Shown here: positions 14,001 through 20,000 of the stretch, piece after piece
How positions within the stretch are numbered: the first letter of the stretch is position 1
How the letters are laid out: the number at the start of each line of letters is the position of its first letter
Assembly (NCBI GenBank): GCA_034439715.1
Contig: JAWXAY010000082.1
Location: 1 to 35,576, forward strand
Direction: 5' to 3'
DNA: 35,576 nt
Origin: Pseudomonadota bacterium
Lineage (GTDB): Bacteria > Bdellovibrionota > Bdellovibrionia > Bdellovibrionales > SG-bin7
Program-made: the position numbers

Positions 14001-17000
14001 CAACGCGAGTCAACAGTTGATCAATACGTTCATTTATTTCTCTTTTAGATTTAAATGCGTTTGATAACTCCGCATAAAAAAACAAGAACTCAGCCCCTGT
14101 CAAATAGGAGTAAAAATAGGGTCGCTCAGGTAAAAAGCCAATTTTCTCTAAAATTTCATTTGTTAGTTTTGACTGCCCGAAGTATTTGACTTCCCCGGAG
14201 TCAGCAAAAATAAGATTAAGGATACACTTAATAGTTGTGGTTTTTCCACAGCCGTTGGGCCCCAAAAAACCCGTAATCGTGCCGGCAGAAATACTAAAGT
14301 TAACATTTTGCAGAATCGTGATTTTTTTTGGTATAAACCCCGATGAAAAACTCTTCGTTAACCCCTTTACCTCAAGTACAGGCTGTGCCAAGCTAAATGC
14401 CTCCGTATTAATAATAAATGCTAATTCTGAATTATGTCAAAATCAACTTCGGGAGCGAAGATACTTCGATCTTATTGGCACGGTAACGCCGAAGTGCATA
14501 CAAAAACGCCAGGGCTGTATCCGCCTCAGTAATACAAGGAATTGAGCCCTCAATACAACTGCGTCGAATACTAAAACTAGCCTCAACAGATTGCCGCCCT
14601 TGGGCGGTATTAATTACCAGAGAAACCAAACCTGATTTAATGCGATCCACACAGTGAGGCCGGCCTTCTAAAACTTTTTTGACATTGGTGACAGGTAGCC
14701 CCTTTTGCGACAGGTATTCAGCCGTACCACCCGTGGCCGAAAGAGAATAACCAAGACCAATTAATTCAAGGGCCATTGGAAACAAAACTTCTTTGTCTTT
14801 ATTTCGCAAAGACAAGAAAATTTCTCCCGCAAGTGGAGGTACTACGTCGCTTGAAAGACAAGCCTTCAATAGAGCCTCTGAATAGTCCGCACCTCGCCCC
14901 ATGCTTTCGCCGGTGGATTTCATCTCAGGTCCCAGTATAGAGTCAGAGTTAGTAATTTTTTTGAACGGGAAAACTACGCCCTTAACCGAAACGGTTGAAA
15001 TATTTTGCCATTTATATCGCTCGAGATTAAGTTCGCTCTTCTTTTTGCCTAAGATGGCCAAGACCCCTAAATCAATCATAGGTATCCCAGTCGCTTTTGC
15101 AATAAAGGGAACAGTGCGAGAACTTCTGGGGTTCGCTTCGAGTAAATAGACGTCGTCATTCTTAATAGCGAGCTGAAGATTGAGAAGTCCCACCACTTTT
15201 ATGCGTTCACTCAATTTTTCGGCCATTTGCTCGATGCGAACACATGTCTGAGGTTTTAACCGTTGCGGGGGAATCACACCCATGCTGTCGCCACTGTGAA
15301 CACCGGCCGCCTCAATATGTTCAATGATGCCTCCGATTACGCTCCAGTCGATGCCTCTCACCAAGTCAACATCGACCTCGAGAGCGTTCTCTAAAAATCT
15401 GTCCATGAGACAGGGCCTTTGACTATTAATGTGGTCCCCGTGCCGACTAAAATAATCAGATAGTTCAATTTCGTCTTGAACAATCTCCATGCGTCGCCCA
15501 CCAAGTACATAACTCGGTCGACATATCACGGGATAACCAATGCGACCGCTAATTTTTTTGGCTTCCTCTAAATTTCCTGCCATGCCGGATTCGGGAATTT
15601 TAAAATCGAGTTCTAGGCAAATTTTAGCAAAGCGAGATCTGTCTTCAGCCAAATCAATGGCATCTAGCGAAGAGCCCAAAAGCTCATAGCCACTTTCAGA
15701 AAGCGGCCGAGCTAAATTTATAGGAGTCTGCCCCCCTAACTGAGCGACAAAACCCTTGGGTCCCACAAAACGCATGACCTCGCGCACATGCTCCGCCACT
15801 AGCGGCTCAAAAAATAATTCATCTGAGGTATCGTAATCTGTTGAAACAGTTTCAGGGTTTGAATTAATCATCACAACCTTGTGTCCCTGTTTTCTAAACT
15901 GCCCTACCGCTCGTACGCAACCGTAATCAAATTCGATGCCCTGGCCAATGCGATTAGGTCCACTACCCAAAATTACCACAATATTGTTGTCCGGTGACCT
16001 TAAATTCCTCTCACTCCAATAGGTGGAGTAAAAATAGGGAGTTTGGGATTTAAATTCGCCGGCGCAAGTATCAACTCTAAGATAGGCAGGCAGAATATTG
16101 AGCTTCTCGCGTAACTTCAAAACATCCATTTCGCTGCAATTTCGAAAGGTAGAAATTGTCTTATCGGCAAACCCTAAACGTTTTGCTTTGAGCAAAATAT
16201 CTAAATTCAGCAGCTTGGTTTCGCTAAGTGTTTTTTCAAAATCTACAACTTCTTTAATCTGCTCTAAGAACCACGGATCTATGTGGGTTATTTTATTAAT
16301 CTCAGCTACAGACTTATTGGCTCTGAAGGCGCTCGCAAGAGAAAAAAGTCGACGACTATTTGGATAAGCAACGAGCTCTTCGGCATACGGGAGGTTTCCG
16401 AAACCAGCCTCTTTATTTTCAAGTGAGGCTAGGGCCTTTCCCAAAGACTCTTTGAAGGTACGACCAATCCCCATGACTTCTCCCACGCTTTTCATTTGGG
16501 TGGTGAGAATATCTGGCGAGCCTGGGAATTTTTCAAATGCAAATCGGGGAATCTTAGTAACCACGTAATCTAAGGCCGGTTCATAGCAGCAAGGGGTAGT
16601 ACCCGTGATATCGTTTTTAATTTCATCAAGACGATAGCCAACAGCCAACAGCGCCGCTATTTTTGCGATCGGAAAGCCCGTGGCCTTACTGGCTAGCGCC
16701 GAGGAGCGACTTACCCTAGGATTGACCTCTATAACCACGCGCTCACCAGTTTCTGGATTTACAGCGAACTGAATATTGGCCCCGCCAGTTTCCACTCCCA
16801 CAGCCTCAATGACTTTTTTAGCTTCATCCCGCATGTCTTGATAGGCGCGATCGGATAATGTTTGCTGCGGTGCCACTGTTACGCTGTCGCCTGTGTGCAC
16901 ACCACAGGGGTCTAAATTTTCGATACTACAAATGACAACAAATGTCCCTACTCGGTCTCGCATAACCTCTAGCTCAAATTCCTTCCAGCCCAAAAGACTT

Positions 17001-20000
17001 TGCTCCACCAAAACCTCTGAAGTCGGACTTTCATTAAGCGCATAGGCTAATAATTTTTGATACTCATCGAGCGAATAGGCAATGCCCCCACCGCCGCCAC
17101 CCAGAGTGTAATTGGGTCGTAATATTAAGGGAAAGCACAGTACGTCCGCAGCCTTGATGCCCTCTTCAAAATTTCTGACAAAGGCACTCTTGGCATACCT
17201 GGCACCAACAGAATCGAGGACCTTTTGAAACTGCGAACGATCTTCAGCACGACGGATAACTTCAGGGTTGGCACCCAACATTTTTACTTTGTACTTTTCT
17301 AGTATCCCCTTAGAGTCGAGCGCCAGAGCTAAATTGAGCGCCGTCTGTCCGCCTAAAGTTGGAATTAAGGCATCGGGACGCTCTTTTTCTAGAATTTTTT
17401 CGAGATACTCAACCTTTAAAGGTTCAATGTATACGCGCGTGGCAATTTCGGGATCGGTCATAATGGTTGCGGGATTTGAGTTGACGAGAATTACTTCGAA
17501 ACCCTTGGCCATGAGGGCCTTACAAGCTTGCGTTCCCGAGTAATCAAACTCACACGCCTGGCCAATAACAATCGGGCCACTTCCAATAATCAGTACCCGC
17601 TTTAAGTTAGTTGGCCCCATTTCATACTCTTTCTAAATTTTTAATTTGGAATCGTCGGTATAAATGTCACTCACATTCACATGCTTGTATTGTTGAAAGA
17701 GGTATCGCATTTTTAAAAGTTTTAACATCATGTCCTCTTTTTCCTGAGGCGTCGATTTTTTAACTCGCTTAATCTCGCGCAGAATATATTTTCGAGCCCG
17801 GGGCGGATGAAAGCAAAACCCTTTAGTAAAAGTGTAAGAGTCTTCTAGGGGAACAATTCTCGCATCAAAAATCTCATCTGTACTGAATCCCACCAAGATT
17901 GGTGATTTCTTAATGATTATTTTTTTGCCCTCGATGATGTCTTTGATATAGACATCATCGCCCTTTATCTTGAGAAAATCGAATAAGCTGTGATGAACTT
18001 TACTCAGTCTCTCTAAAGTTGAAGGTTCAACATTTATCCCCAAAACTTCAGTTTTAGATTTAACCATTTGAAGAGGTGTTATACCTTGTCCCATGTTACG
18101 CGTAAAAACATACCAATCTAAAAACTGAGACATCCTTAGATCAAAATCTGAAGAAAGTTCATCTACGACACCTGAACGCTCGAAAAACTCGGCCTTCGCG
18201 AGCCTAACCTCTTCGCTGAAGTTATCCCCCGTAAAATGTTGTACTATTTTTTCTATACATTCATCTTGATTCATTTAACCCACTCTACAAAATGGTCAAA
18301 AATTTCGCGCGCGTCATTTGGGCCAGGGCAACTTTCTGGGTGGAACTGCACACTCTGGCATTTCTTTGAGGGGCATTCCAAACCTTCATTAGTTTTGTCG
18401 TTCAAATTAATATGCGTGGGAGAAATACCTGATGTCAATTGGCCTAAGTCAACGGCGTACCCATGATTTTGACTTGTGACGTAAACACGACCGCTTCTTA
18501 AATCCTGAACAGGGTGATTGCCCCCCCTGTGGCCAAATTTAAGCTTAAAGGTGCTAAGTCCGAGGGCACGCGCCAGTATCTGATGGCCCATGCAAATTCC
18601 AAAAACTGGTCTCCAACCCAAAAGTTCTTTGATAGTCTCGGTTGCCTGTTTAACTTCAAGGGGATCACCGGGACCATTAGTCAGAAAAAGTGCAGTTGGT
18701 TCCCACTTTTGAATTTGTAGTGCGGTTGCTCGGCTGGGAAATATCGCAACCTCTCGACTTCGTTTTCGTAACTCGCGAATAATATTTTCTTTGGTTCCAA
18801 AATCCAATATAGCCACGCGGGGTCCATTCGACTTTTCACCTTGCAGTATTTCGATTTCCTTGCGGCTGACAGCGTAAACCCAATCCCTATCTTTTTTTTG
18901 TCCCGCCTCTATAAGGCTTGCCGATATTTTAATCGCCTCTTGGGGGTCAGCAGCAGCGACAAGCGCACCCCAAGGCGTGCCTTTGTCTCGAAGCCTCAAT
19001 ACGAGACCGCGAGTATCGATCTCGGTCAAAACAGGAATGTCACTTGTGGTTAGTCTTTTTAACCACGAACTTTCACGCTCAGAATTCTGAATTTCTAAAC
19101 AAATAAAACCCTCAATAGAGAGCATTGGAGATTCATGAAATTCTTTGTGGGCACCATAATTCCCCTGCATGGGAGAAGTTAACACTAATATTTGTGAATA
19201 GTATGAAGGATCGGTGGCCATTTCTTCATAGCCGAAATGAGAGGTATTAAAGACCACTTCACCGGCGCGGTTTTTCCCTCCCTCCCATTTACCAGAGTAA
19301 ACCTCACCGCTGTCTAAAACCAAAAAACCCTTTTTCATATTTTGATTCCTAAGATTTCAGCAAGTATTGCCGTTCTCATAAAAACTCCATTTTCAACCTG
19401 TTCTAACACTCGGCACCTTTTGTCGTCCCTTATTTCGTACGTCAATTCCCAGCCAAAGTTTATGGGCCCAGGTGACATCAAAAGACCATTTAATAAACCT
19501 ATATTCTTACCGTTAATTCCAAAATGACTGTGATATACCTCTTGGCTTCTCCAGCGAGTGGTAGCGCGATCTGCATGACGCTCCCACTGTATTCTTAACG
19601 GCATGCACAGAGAGCACCATTTCAAACCTTCTTCAAGAGAAAATACTCGTCCTTTTTTTTTCAACTCCGGAGTCATCCATTCCTCAGGTCCAGAAAAGCC
19701 TAGCTCAATGCCAAACTTTGAAAGCAGTTCGATATGGGAAGCTGCCACGCGGCTATGTCCCACATCTCCCACTAATAAGACTTTTTGTTTTTCAAGATTT
19801 TTTTCTTCTAACCAGAGAGTAAATAAATCACCCAAGGCTTGAGTGGGATGACCCTTGCTGCCCCCACCGCCACTTATAACCGGTACTTTTAATTTTTCAG
19901 AGATTTTTTCTAAGGCTTTATCTAGAGTGGTGCTTTCATTGTATCTTACGACAAGGATGTCTGGTCCCATGGCGACAACATTTTGAATTGTGTCTTCTTC

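Follow-up and report, generated by a model that had tools for sequence, protein, structure and literature searches.

Gene X, a DUF7986 protein gene at the distal end of the pyrimidine operon, as a candidate accessory of pyrimidine synthesis

Described companions of the pyrimidine enzymes and the pyrB-carA-X-carB locus

Carbamoyl-phosphate synthetase (CPSase) and the pyrimidine pathway are textbook biochemistry, most of which stems from E. coli and Bacillus. Among the described proteins that accompany these enzymes, PyrI (PF01948/PF02748) is small, non-catalytic and encoded directly after a catalytic pyrimidine gene, and PyrR, the pyr-operon attenuation protein, is a non-biosynthetic protein carried in pyr operons. 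The window, i.e. the whole stretch of 35,576 nucleotides from a member of the Bdellovibrionales that was analysed here, contains a gene between carA and carB (gene X) which, if read as an accessory, resembles both in these respects. However, X shows no likeness to PyrI in sequence or fold and has no zinc domain, and PF01948 is absent from the genome, while seven control genomes gave a match. PyrR adopts a PRTase fold and is encoded at the head of its operon, whereas X contains no phosphoribosyltransferase domain. Moreover, a PRTase-domain gene precedes pyrB in X-bearing operons of Nitrospina (L136) and Myxococcota (L179, L211), and X is therefore not a substitute for PyrR. SEC-C or 'YecA family' proteins share the DUF7986 module (PF25948) with X, which, unlike them, has neither the SEC-C motif (PF02810) nor any other Pfam domain or cysteine cluster. 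A full-text search for published work naming DUF7986 returned no paper.

The locus comprises the following features, all on the minus strand:

11939-12745, minus strand: prepilin peptidase gene, downstream context (Pfam)
12742-13509, minus strand: ABC-2 permease gene, downstream context (Pfam)
13513-14391, minus strand: ABC ATPase gene, downstream context (Pfam)
14411-14440, minus strand: promoter-like site TTGACA-18-TATTAT, 11/12, at the carB end and just 5' of the ABC ATPase gene (consensus match only)
14432-17620, minus strand: carB, CPSase large subunit, 1062 aa (Pfam CPSase_L_D1/D2/D3 and MGS)
17621-17632, minus strand: 12-nt spacer from the X stop to the carB start, AAAGAGTATGAA, with an AAGAG Shine-Dalgarno-like stretch (direct sequence reading)
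17633-18274, minus strand: gene X, DUF7986 (PF25948) protein, 213 aa (ORF and translation, homologues, AF2 model)
18271-19338, minus strand: carA, CPSase small (glutaminase) subunit, 355 aa (Pfam CPSase_sm_chain and GATase)
19335-20273, minus strand: pyrB, aspartate carbamoyltransferase, first gene of the unit, 312 aa (Pfam OTCace_N and OTCace)
20282-20311, minus strand: promoter-like site TTGACA-18-TATATT, 11/12, just 5' of pyrB (consensus match only)
20308-20835 and 20840-21658, minus strand: two lepB paralogues, upstream context (Pfam)
21648-23447, minus strand: lepA, upstream context (Pfam)

The stop codon of carA and the start codon of X share the tetranucleotide ATGA at 18271-18274, pyrB and carA likewise overlap by 4 nt, and the carB ATG lies 12 nt past the X stop, so that coordinates and sequence agree with the survey's finding of a gene wedged between carA and carB with a 4-nt overlap and a 12-nt gap. 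The carA of the window is the only one found in the genome. The two promoter-like sites are the best within positions 11500-24500 and bracket pyrB to carB, in an interval where the total number of such sites does not exceed that in shuffled sequence. Transcription of pyrB-carA-X-carB likely starts at the putative site at 20282-20311, and a unit boundary is likely at the putative promoter at 14411-14440. X is probably made from this message; its start is coupled to the carA stop, which keeps its output in step with the pyrimidine enzymes.

Family, structure and conservation of the X protein

With its many near-length homologues and a confident AF2 model (pLDDT 89.6, pTM 0.86), X is a real gene. 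Near-length matches at E<=1e-3 number 132, and 119 of the 120 listed carry a precomputed PF25948 domain over nearly the whole length, as does X; a separate search gave 624 representative clusters at the same threshold. In addition, the Atlas assigns the aligned part of X to DUF7986 with a score of 1502, rated as meeting the bar, and its structural neighbours of X are DUF7986 clusters with a TM of 0.87. Assignment to DUF7986 is thus indirect, by way of the homologues' precomputed domains and the Atlas rows; the Pfam and NCBIfam profiles searched did not include a DUF7986 model, and the Pfam set gave zero matches to X at E<=10. Members from Nitrospinota possess a coiled-coil-like insert of about 80 aa in the C-terminal hairpin, and in other phyla the domain is fused to SEC-C, TPR or AcrVA2-like domains, whereas X represents the soluble, stand-alone short form of about 25 kDa.

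The AF2 model begins with an acidic helical N-domain (residues 1 to about 90), which is followed by a five-stranded OB-like barrel (about 94-149) and, in the C-terminal part, by a basic helical hairpin (about 158-204); the overall pI is 7.7. An enzyme-like signature is absent from X. The polar residues Arg59, Asp112, Arg139, His156 and Tyr205 are conserved across the family, and Cys154, the only widely conserved cysteine, lies outside any cluster. The surface formed by conserved helix 3 (RMxQFLDWY) and the strand-5 loop (GFCFHP) is likely a binding face.

Residues from about 87 to about 157 align with OB-fold, S1 and eIF1A-like barrels, with SilF as the best match (Z 7.1, 66 residues, rmsd 2.3), followed by LEF-3 (Z 6.6), PriB (Z 5.4) and RecO (Z 5.3), all within a range that the tool calls common for unrelated folds. 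Foldseek assigned eIF1A and eIF5A probabilities of up to 0.98, yet its barrel matches, many of which are eIF1A, eIF5A, S1 or EF-P type domains, are weak (E 0.03-0.25). No whole-length structural match was among the fold matches, and the N-domain folded alone gave a best Z of 4.4. A generic OB-like barrel was the only solved-fold or named-family match obtained.

X is a core gene of Bdellovibrionota: 264 of 301 genomes have it, representing 157 of 170 genera, and almost all of them give a single match.

Gene order across phyla and loci without CPSase

Genome loci from Bdellovibrionota, Nitrospinota and Myxococcota have carA directly upstream of X in 202 of the 229 cases that are decidable (Bdellovibrionales 69/77, Bacteriovoracia/Oligoflexia 12/18, Nitrospinota 58/58, Myxococcota 63/76). 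The two codons, carA stop and X start, overlap at 52 of 70 loci in Bdellovibrionales, 55 of 59 in Nitrospinota and 8 of 12 in Bacteriovoracia/Oligoflexia. The full order carA-X-carB occurs at 68 of 80 Bdellovibrionales loci, which strengthens the earlier observation that X and the car genes are common neighbours in the order, and at 57 of 62 Nitrospinota loci. Outside these two groups adjacency to both subunit genes is not conserved: carB follows X at 3 of 16 decidable loci in Bacteriovoracia/Oligoflexia and at none of 72 in Myxococcota. In Nitrospinota the operon reads pyrR-like-pyrB-pyrC-carA-X-carB; a DnaJ-like gene and a ferredoxin gene stand ahead of it, and neither lepA nor lepB lies near X. 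In contrast, both Bdellovibrionota and Myxococcota have lepA-lepB just before the pyr genes.

Distant subfamilies were covered by 80 metagenome loci (21-35% identity to the query's first sequence). carA-X is found at 47 and pyrB-pyrC-X at 14 of these, 5 show neither arrangement and 14 are cut by the contig end; X is accordingly pyr-linked at 61 of 66 decidable loci, at 14 of which it directly follows pyrC without carA. The constant neighbour of X is therefore the distal end of the pyrB-pyrC-carA operon and not the carA/carB pair, and the link to pyrimidine genes reaches beyond one order to three named phyla and many metagenome lineages. X has been carried distally in (pyrR)-pyrB-(pyrC)-carA-X-(carB) from a time that predates the split of Myxococcota, Bdellovibrionota and Nitrospinota. 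The view of X as a coupled and conserved operon gene stands, but not its restriction to Bdellovibrionota, and the same arrangement in Nitrospinota and Myxococcota speaks against the proposed tie to a predatory life.

Natural rearrangements separate X from CPSase. In all five genomes tested from one exception clade, pyrB-carA-carB sit at another site with carA abutting carB and no X between them, and X is left in place, intact and under purifying selection. Unlinking of X from car occurred in two further lineages; in family f19 none of the five genomes tested has X linked to carA. A closed Bdellovibrio genome carries pyrB-X-carB, with carA missing. Where the pyr genes are gone or moved, X directly follows lepA at L262-L266, L271 and L279-L282, and the order lepA-lepB-X is seen at L269, L383, L384 and in the eight Bdellovibrionales exceptions.

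Across the 301 Bdellovibrionota genomes, the co-occurrence of X with CarA and CarB differs from that expected of a CPSase subunit. Of 284 CarA-positive genomes 33 give no X match, and X is present in 13 of 17 CarA-negative genomes and in 11 of 14 genomes without CarA and CarB, most of these being 87-99% complete MAGs. One family includes five genomes, 95-99% complete and in one case a single contig, that contain X with no CarA family match and no CarB, and no PyrB was found in the three of them that were tested; the single-contig genome G214 is the firmest case. In the X of this family four residues conserved family-wide are changed (Arg59, Pro67, His156 and Tyr205).

Possible roles of X

The survey's finding had been read as pointing to a third, regulatory or assembly subunit of CPSase. 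Stoichiometric binding of X to CarA and/or CarB would fit its place between the two genes, with overlapping or near-abutting codons, in most Bdellovibrionales and Nitrospinota, and carA as its commonest immediate neighbour overall. However, the missing carB adjacency in Myxococcota, the loci with X behind pyrC, the exception clade, the Bdellovibrio genome without carA and the CarA-positive genomes without X all speak against it, and since X survives where CPSase genes have been moved or lost, a true third subunit is unlikely. Judged by sequence, CarA and the allosteric domain of CarB look canonical: CarA aligns to residues 2-354 of E. coli CarA (E 3e-71) and keeps the GICxGHQ and HPE motifs, and the CarB domain matches residues 774-1056 of the E. 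coli protein. Those residues which we take to form the UMP/IMP site are conserved in CarB; hence nothing suggests that allosteric control has been replaced, as had been proposed for UMP/ornithine.

A different explanation is that X is a housekeeping adaptor unrelated to the pathway, favoured here as a translation- or ribosome-linked binding protein, whose place in the operon is inherited order giving only co-expression. It is suggested by intact X directly behind lepA (EF4) or lepA-lepB, by the translation-type domains among the weak barrel matches, by X in genomes where CPSase was not found, and by fusions of homologous domains to SEC-C motifs, which bind ribosomes, to TPR repeats and to an AcrVA2-like domain. 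AcrVA2 reportedly acts in a translation-dependent manner (bioRxiv 10.1101/2022.11.29.518452). On the other hand, any deletion of the pyr genes between them would bring X next to lepA, Nitrospinota loci have no lepA or lepB near X, pyr linkage is seen at nearly all decidable metagenome loci, none of the fold matches is significant, and X has an overall pI of 7.7 and an acidic N-domain. We therefore regard this role as a serious but rather unlikely alternative. A sensor of a small molecule, e.g. a pyrimidine nucleotide, that tunes either the pathway or some other process would keep its use in cells living on salvage and would account for the conserved polar residues, the membership in the pyr operon and the retention of X in genomes lacking de novo synthesis. 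Yet the searches with X gave neither a nucleotide-binding motif nor such a fold match, and the X-bearing operons of Nitrospina and some Myxococcota already include a PyrR-like regulator, making a sensor very unlikely.

The reading we prefer, at a probability of roughly 45%, is that X is an operon-carried accessory or adaptor linked to pyrimidine synthesis and not an obligate stoichiometric subunit of CPSase, because the enzyme works without X in many relatives and X outlasts relocation or loss of car. X would be a non-catalytic binding protein serving the pyrimidine-synthesis enzymes as a group, or their regulation, with CarA or the ATCase/DHOase end of the pathway as candidate targets of its predicted binding face. 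Against the accessory reading, gene order can mislead, as lepA-lepB adjoins pyrB in Bdellovibrionota and Myxococcota without a known functional tie. Retention of X where neither CPSase nor PyrB was found counts against a protein devoted to de novo synthesis, for which loss would be expected, although the X of the family concerned is changed at four conserved residues, and none of the Atlas-listed fusions joins DUF7986 to a pyrimidine enzyme. A more specific and quite doubtful form of the accessory reading makes DUF7986 an unrecognised accessory of bacterial de novo pyrimidine synthesis, either a regulator tied to nucleotide supply or a scaffold that joins CarA/CPSase to ATCase-DHOase and would enable hand-over of carbamoyl phosphate from CPSase to this pair. 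Such a scaffold would correspond in bacteria to the CAD arrangement of eukaryotes. DUF7986 would have been kept at the distal end of the operon in at least three phyla.

Being near-universal and single-copy in one phylum, and keeping its place in the pyrimidine operon across phyla and metagenome lineages, X is a well-defined candidate for an accessory function that is missing from the textbook pathway; rearrangements in nature and losses of genes argue against the obvious reading of it as simply a third subunit. The role of X is open to direct test in the tractable Myxococcus xanthus and Bdellovibrio bacteriovorus. A Tn-seq study of B. bacteriovorus 109J (PMC6561027) gives, in its supplement file 5, fitness W values of 2.6-4.4 in four conditions for the hypothetical gene that lies between carA and carB; these values resemble those of pyrB (2.9-3.6), carA (1.4-2.1), carB (1.8-2.4), pyrC, pyrD and pyrE. 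Many unrelated genes in this file have W values of 1.2-2.2, and the phenotype of the X-position gene may be polar on carB. The next ABC genes, in contrast, have W values of 0.001-0.05; insertions in X and carB are tolerated in these data while the downstream ABC genes are required, which fits a unit boundary at 14411-14440.

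Layout of the pyrB-carA-X-carB region

Gene X, which encodes a 213-residue protein of family DUF7986, is located between carA and carB, the genes for the small (glutaminase) and the large subunit of carbamoyl-phosphate synthetase (CPSase). The arrangement described in the survey's finding was borne out exactly with respect to the coordinates, the minus strand, the overlap of carA and X and the 12-nt gap to carB.

Features of the region
19335-20273, minus: pyrB (ORF call and Pfam)
18271-19338, minus: carA (ORF call and Pfam)
17633-18274, minus: X, 213 aa (ORF call)
14432-17620, minus: carB (ORF call and Pfam)
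20311-20282, minus: promoter-like site before pyrB (11/12 consensus match)
14440-14411, minus: promoter-like site before the ABC ATPase gene (11/12 consensus match)

In the sequence, the stop of carA and the start of X have the ATGA at 18271-18274 in common, a 4-nt overlap likewise joins pyrB and carA, and the stop of X is separated from the ATG of carB by the 12-nt spacer AAAGAGTATGAA. Upstream of the pyr genes Pfam identifies lepA (EF4) and two lepB paralogues (signal peptidase I), and downstream of carB an ABC ATPase, an ABC-2 permease and a prepilin peptidase; these flanking genes run in the same direction as the pyr genes, with gaps of at most 40 nt. The two best promoter-like sites of the region, which are consensus matches only and belong to a set whose total count is not above that of shuffles, precede pyrB and the ABC ATPase gene, and their position therefore suggests a transcription unit of the four genes pyrB-carA-X-carB. 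A pyr leader element was not found by Rfam over the whole window; the only matches of that scan are a complete bacterial 16S rRNA gene at 3-1519 and one tRNA gene at 1990-2062, both on the minus strand. The signal peptidase I paralogues stand in tandem at 20308-21658, and relatives carry two to four of them, always between lepA and pyrB.

As judged from its sequence, the CPSase of the window looks ordinary. CarA aligns end to end with E. coli CarA and contains the catalytic Cys-His-Glu motifs, and the allosteric domain of CarB aligns to E. coli residues 774-1056. Among the residues which we take to form the nucleotide site of E. coli CarB, S948, K954, T974, T977, K993, N1015 and T1016 are conserved, with Ala in place of T1017; among those presumed to form the ornithine site, E783, D791 and T1042 are conserved, with Gly in place of E892. 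Activation by ornithine may be weak or absent, as might suit a CPSase serving pyrimidine synthesis only. The genome contains a single carA, and no PyrI was found in it.

Breadth of the link between X and pyrimidine genes

The surroundings of X were sampled in genome loci (four sets, plus a small extra set of 10 loci) and in one set of metagenome loci. The locus searches were made with narrower X alignments, the proteins of the window served as tblastn queries for scoring the neighbours, and the counts were corrected against the raw matches.

Arrangement of genes around X in the sampled loci
Bdellovibrionales, 80 loci: carA-X-carB 68; edge-X-carB 3; carA-X-edge 1; no car gene beside X 8
Nitrospinota, 62 loci: carA-X-carB 57; edge-X-carB 3; carA-X-edge 1; cut on both sides 1; exceptions 0
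Bacteriovoracia/Oligoflexia, 18 loci: carA-X-carB 3; carA-X and another gene 8; carA-X-edge 1; pyrB-pyrC-X 1; carA 1.5 kb upstream 1; X convergent with carA 3; none 1
Myxococcota, including Myxococcus and Anaeromyxobacter, 80 loci: carA directly upstream 63; pyrB-pyrC-X 5; cut by contig end 4; none 8
Extra set, 10 loci: lepA-...-pyrB-pyrC-carA-X-carB 1; carA-X 3; lepA-X 4; short contigs 2
Metagenome contigs, distant subfamilies (21-35% identity), 80 loci: carA-X 47; pyrB-(1.3 kb)-X 14; neither 5; cut by contig end 14

Among the decidable loci, carA is the gene immediately upstream of X in 202 of 229 from genomes, and a pyr link is present in 61 of 66 from metagenomes; since the loci are the best-scoring matches per search and related genomes are not independent, these fractions characterize the samples and should not be read as probabilities. 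Overlap of the carA stop with the X start is found at 52 of 70 junctions in Bdellovibrionales, 55 of 59 in Nitrospinota and 8 of 12 in Bacteriovoracia/Oligoflexia. On the other side of X, stop and carB start overlap at 47 of 61 Nitrospinota and 10 of 71 Bdellovibrionales junctions, with 46 more of the latter spaced by no more than 30 nt, and in Myxococcota carB is not the next gene after X at any of the 72 loci that extend far enough downstream. Myxococcus xanthus has carA-X and its carB elsewhere. At two Bacteriovoracia/Oligoflexia loci the gene after X encodes a heptosyltransferase (L153, L162). A Nitrospina locus (L136) presents the string of a PRTase-domain (PyrR-like) gene, pyrB, pyrC, carA, X and carB, and a PyrR-like gene also stands first in the pyrB-pyrC-X arrangement at two Myxococcota loci. 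Across three named phyla, and across many divergent lineages known from metagenomes, the stand-alone DUF7986 gene has stayed at the distal end of the pyrimidine operon with its start and stop codons coupled. Gene-order conservation of that degree usually reflects function.

Two further neighbours were observed just downstream of X: the arginine decarboxylase gene speA in the Bacteriovoracia/Oligoflexia loci L146, L149 and L150, where carB is not there, and a gene for an FHA-domain protein of 370-442 aa in three unrelated lineages (L164, of the Bacteriovoracia/Oligoflexia set, L218 and L246).

X and the CPSase genes apart

A second fact points the other way: X does not track CPSase. It stays when the car genes leave and is present where they were not found, and it follows pyrC where carA lies elsewhere and often lacks carB as a neighbour. 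In eight Bdellovibrionales loci, referred to as the exception clade, X is placed in the order lepB-X-ABC and is flanked neither by pyrB-carA nor by carB. All five genomes tested carry a contiguous pyrB-carA-carB elsewhere, in which carA abuts carB and X is missing, together with one intact X per genome (E ~1e-96). CarB of this clade is 45-51% identical to that of the window versus 59-73% in syntenic loci, and the similarity of LepA (66-69%) and X (44-48%) to the window is the same as in other loci. SH-aLRT is the only support measure of the two trees, both quickly built. In the CarA tree the five relocated CarAs lie apart from the clade of all 31 syntenic CarAs (100% support), and in the X tree seven of the eight exception X proteins nest among 29 syntenic ones in a clade of 97% support, the eighth standing beside that of B. 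bacteriovorus. It looks as if the car genes had been replaced or relocated and X inherited in place; dN values of X within the clade are 0.024 and 0.041, with synonymous sites saturated. Comparison of L082-L086 (genomes G001-G005) with L015, L019, L041, L047 and L050 places the divergent pyrB-carA-carB elsewhere and finds the old sites beside X empty, and the block looks like a foreign or long-separated replacement copy. Separation of the genes is also seen in f19, the largest sampled family of the phylum, where all five CarA-positive genomes tested have X and carA on different contigs, and in one genus of family f21, in which two CarA-positive genomes show lepA-lepB-X with carA elsewhere.

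Presence of the genes was compared over a common set of 301 Bdellovibrionota genomes of at least 80% completeness, with a CarA cut-off of E<=1e-30. X is found in 264 and CarA in 284 of them. Thirteen of the 17 CarA-negative genomes carry X, the X-negative status of two of the other four (G169, G267) being taken from their absence among the matches listed. CarB is also missing in 14 of the 17, and 11 of these 14 keep X, one of them (G241) with a weak match (E 2e-5). For metagenome-assembled genomes of this quality about 5% absence is expected for any locus, and weight is therefore put on the firmest enzyme-less genomes. Five f19 genomes (95-99% complete) gave no match to the CarA family PF00988, which was matched in 14 of 14 controls, and no CarB; one of them, G214, is a single contig and also without PyrB. 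All five contain an intact X of 208-220 aa directly after lepA, a pair found likewise in four further species. Four CarA/CarB-negative f21 genomes were not accepted as clean losses keeping X, since in one of their genera the CarA-positive congeners likewise show lepA-lepB-X, with carA elsewhere, and an assembly gap is possible; the occurrence of X without CPSase is accordingly carried mainly by f19 and G214. In f19, where X stands directly after or overlaps lepA (L262-L266, L279-L282), R59, P67, H156 and Y205 are changed and A26, G35, F51, W54, D112, R139 and P157 are kept. Because the four changed residues are otherwise conserved throughout DUF7986, the function of X may have shifted there.

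The closed Bdellovibrio genome G154 (L272) shows the order pyrB-X-carB with 128 nt from pyrB to X, carA being cleanly missing; no CarA was found elsewhere in it at E<=1e-30, and its CarB is therefore left without a glutaminase partner. Conversely, no X match was obtained in 33 CarA-positive genomes of the phylum, mostly of family f15. In family f16 all five X-positive genomes have carA and both X-negative genomes lack carA and carB, a co-loss that is suggestive of a functional tie and that would equally arise if one contiguous block had been deleted in a single event.

Neither CarA nor CarB was found in 14 of the 301 genomes (G214, G244, G250, G280, G283, G027, G035 and others), which suggests that predators have repeatedly lost de novo pyrimidine synthesis, although only one such genome is a single contig. 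These genomes fit the deficient pyrimidine synthesis of obligate predators mentioned in the introduction of a Halobacteriovorax paper (PMC12724312).

The X protein and its possible role

The family is already catalogued in Pfam as a DUF (PF25948, DUF7986 according to the Atlas). At E<=1e-3 X has 132 near-length homologues; of the 120 listed, 119 have a precomputed PF25948 assignment. An exhaustive search returned 624 representative clusters at E<=1e-3, of which 308 pass E<=1e-10 and 34 pass E<=1e-30. X itself had no match at E<=10 in the versions of Pfam and NCBIfam used, which contain no DUF7986 model, no family recurred when 51 distant members were scanned against Pfam, and PDB searches with X and with a profile gave nothing meaningful. 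Fused forms of DUF7986 with SEC-C, TPR or AcrVA2-like domains are listed by the Atlas; a word-based and hence weak search for longer, fused forms found none. No paper naming DUF7986 was found by family name, and literature searches on carA/carB in Bdellovibrio and on an ORF between carA and carB yielded nothing relevant among the papers listed.

The AF2 model of X is confident (pLDDT 89.6, pTM 0.86). Its N-domain (3-90) is helical and acidic (pI 4.5), a five-stranded barrel (94-149) follows, and the helical hairpin at 158-204 is basic (pI 10.0); the pI of the whole protein is 7.7. Residues conserved to at least 80% in 137 diverse representatives are A26, G35, F51, W54, R59, P67, F98, D112, R139, H156, P157 and Y205, and the motifs RMxQFLDWY and GFCFHP are invariant within Bdellovibrionales. 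In Nitrospinota X has about 290 aa, and its hairpin carries an insert of about 80 aa whose only Pfam matches are weak ones of coiled-coil type. Searches with the whole model (Foldseek against the PDB, VIA wide) returned only generic OB-like barrels, the best being SilF (Z 7.1, 66 residues, rmsd 2.3); Foldseek E-values are 0.03 or higher, with a barrel resembling the eIF1A/S1 type. The N-domain folded alone (pLDDT 86.9) reaches Z 4.4 at best in VIA wide, and by the tool's own notes none of the scores is beyond chance resemblance. Among named Atlas clusters without PF25948 the best score is 0.79, under lead level. On these matches neither a named fold nor a new one can be claimed for X. A complex prediction for CarA and X scored 0.00, was run without controls and counts neither for nor against binding.

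What is new beyond the catalogued family is how far the link to the pyr operon extends, which neighbour is the constant one, and the set of natural experiments that speak against a CPSase subunit. We tentatively favour, at a probability of roughly 0.45, a non-catalytic accessory or adaptor protein which would serve the pyrimidine enzymes as a group, or their regulation. The survey's finding had proposed a third, regulatory or assembly subunit of CPSase. An obligate subunit is argued against by the relocation of the car genes away from a stationary X (exception clade, f19, f21 genus), by X in genomes without a CarA/CarB match, by the 33 CarA-positive genomes without X, by the pyrC-X loci and by the frequent absence of carB as a neighbour, and a strict third subunit is accordingly improbable. 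The main rival, less likely but the foremost among the alternatives, is a housekeeping adaptor unrelated to pyrimidines and perhaps linked to translation, to which the lepA adjacency, the SEC-C, TPR and AcrVA2-like fusions and the eIF1A/S1-like barrel are weak leads. A ligand sensor is the least probable of these readings.

Experimental data on a relative come from published Tn-seq of Bdellovibrio bacteriovorus 109J (PMC6561027). There, three signal peptidase genes are followed by pyrB, carA, the 'hypothetical protein' EP01_RS18170 (X) and carB, in agreement with the sampled B. bacteriovorus loci. Rows of supplement file 5 give fitness W in four predation conditions: 3.3, 2.9, 3.4 and 3.6 for pyrB; 1.9, 1.4, 2.1 and 1.6 for carA; 2.8, 4.4, 2.6 and 2.6, with large standard deviations, for X; and 2.0, 1.9, 2.4 and 1.8 for carB, with pyrC at about 1.9, pyrD at about 2.1 and pyrE at 2.1-2.9. 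For the pair of ABC genes in second and third position after carB, W is 0.001-0.05. According to these rows predation can do without X, as it can without the de novo pyrimidine genes but not without the ABC/pilus block. As a phenocopy test the data are not discriminating and prove no shared function, since W of 1.2-2.2 is reached by many unrelated genes of the table and an insertion in X may exert a polar effect on carB. A search of the main text of that paper found no mention of the pyrimidine genes. In the same rows the ABC ATPase/permease pair (12742-14391 in the window; EP01_RS18185/18190) is, with neighbouring pilus genes, among the genes most needed for predation.
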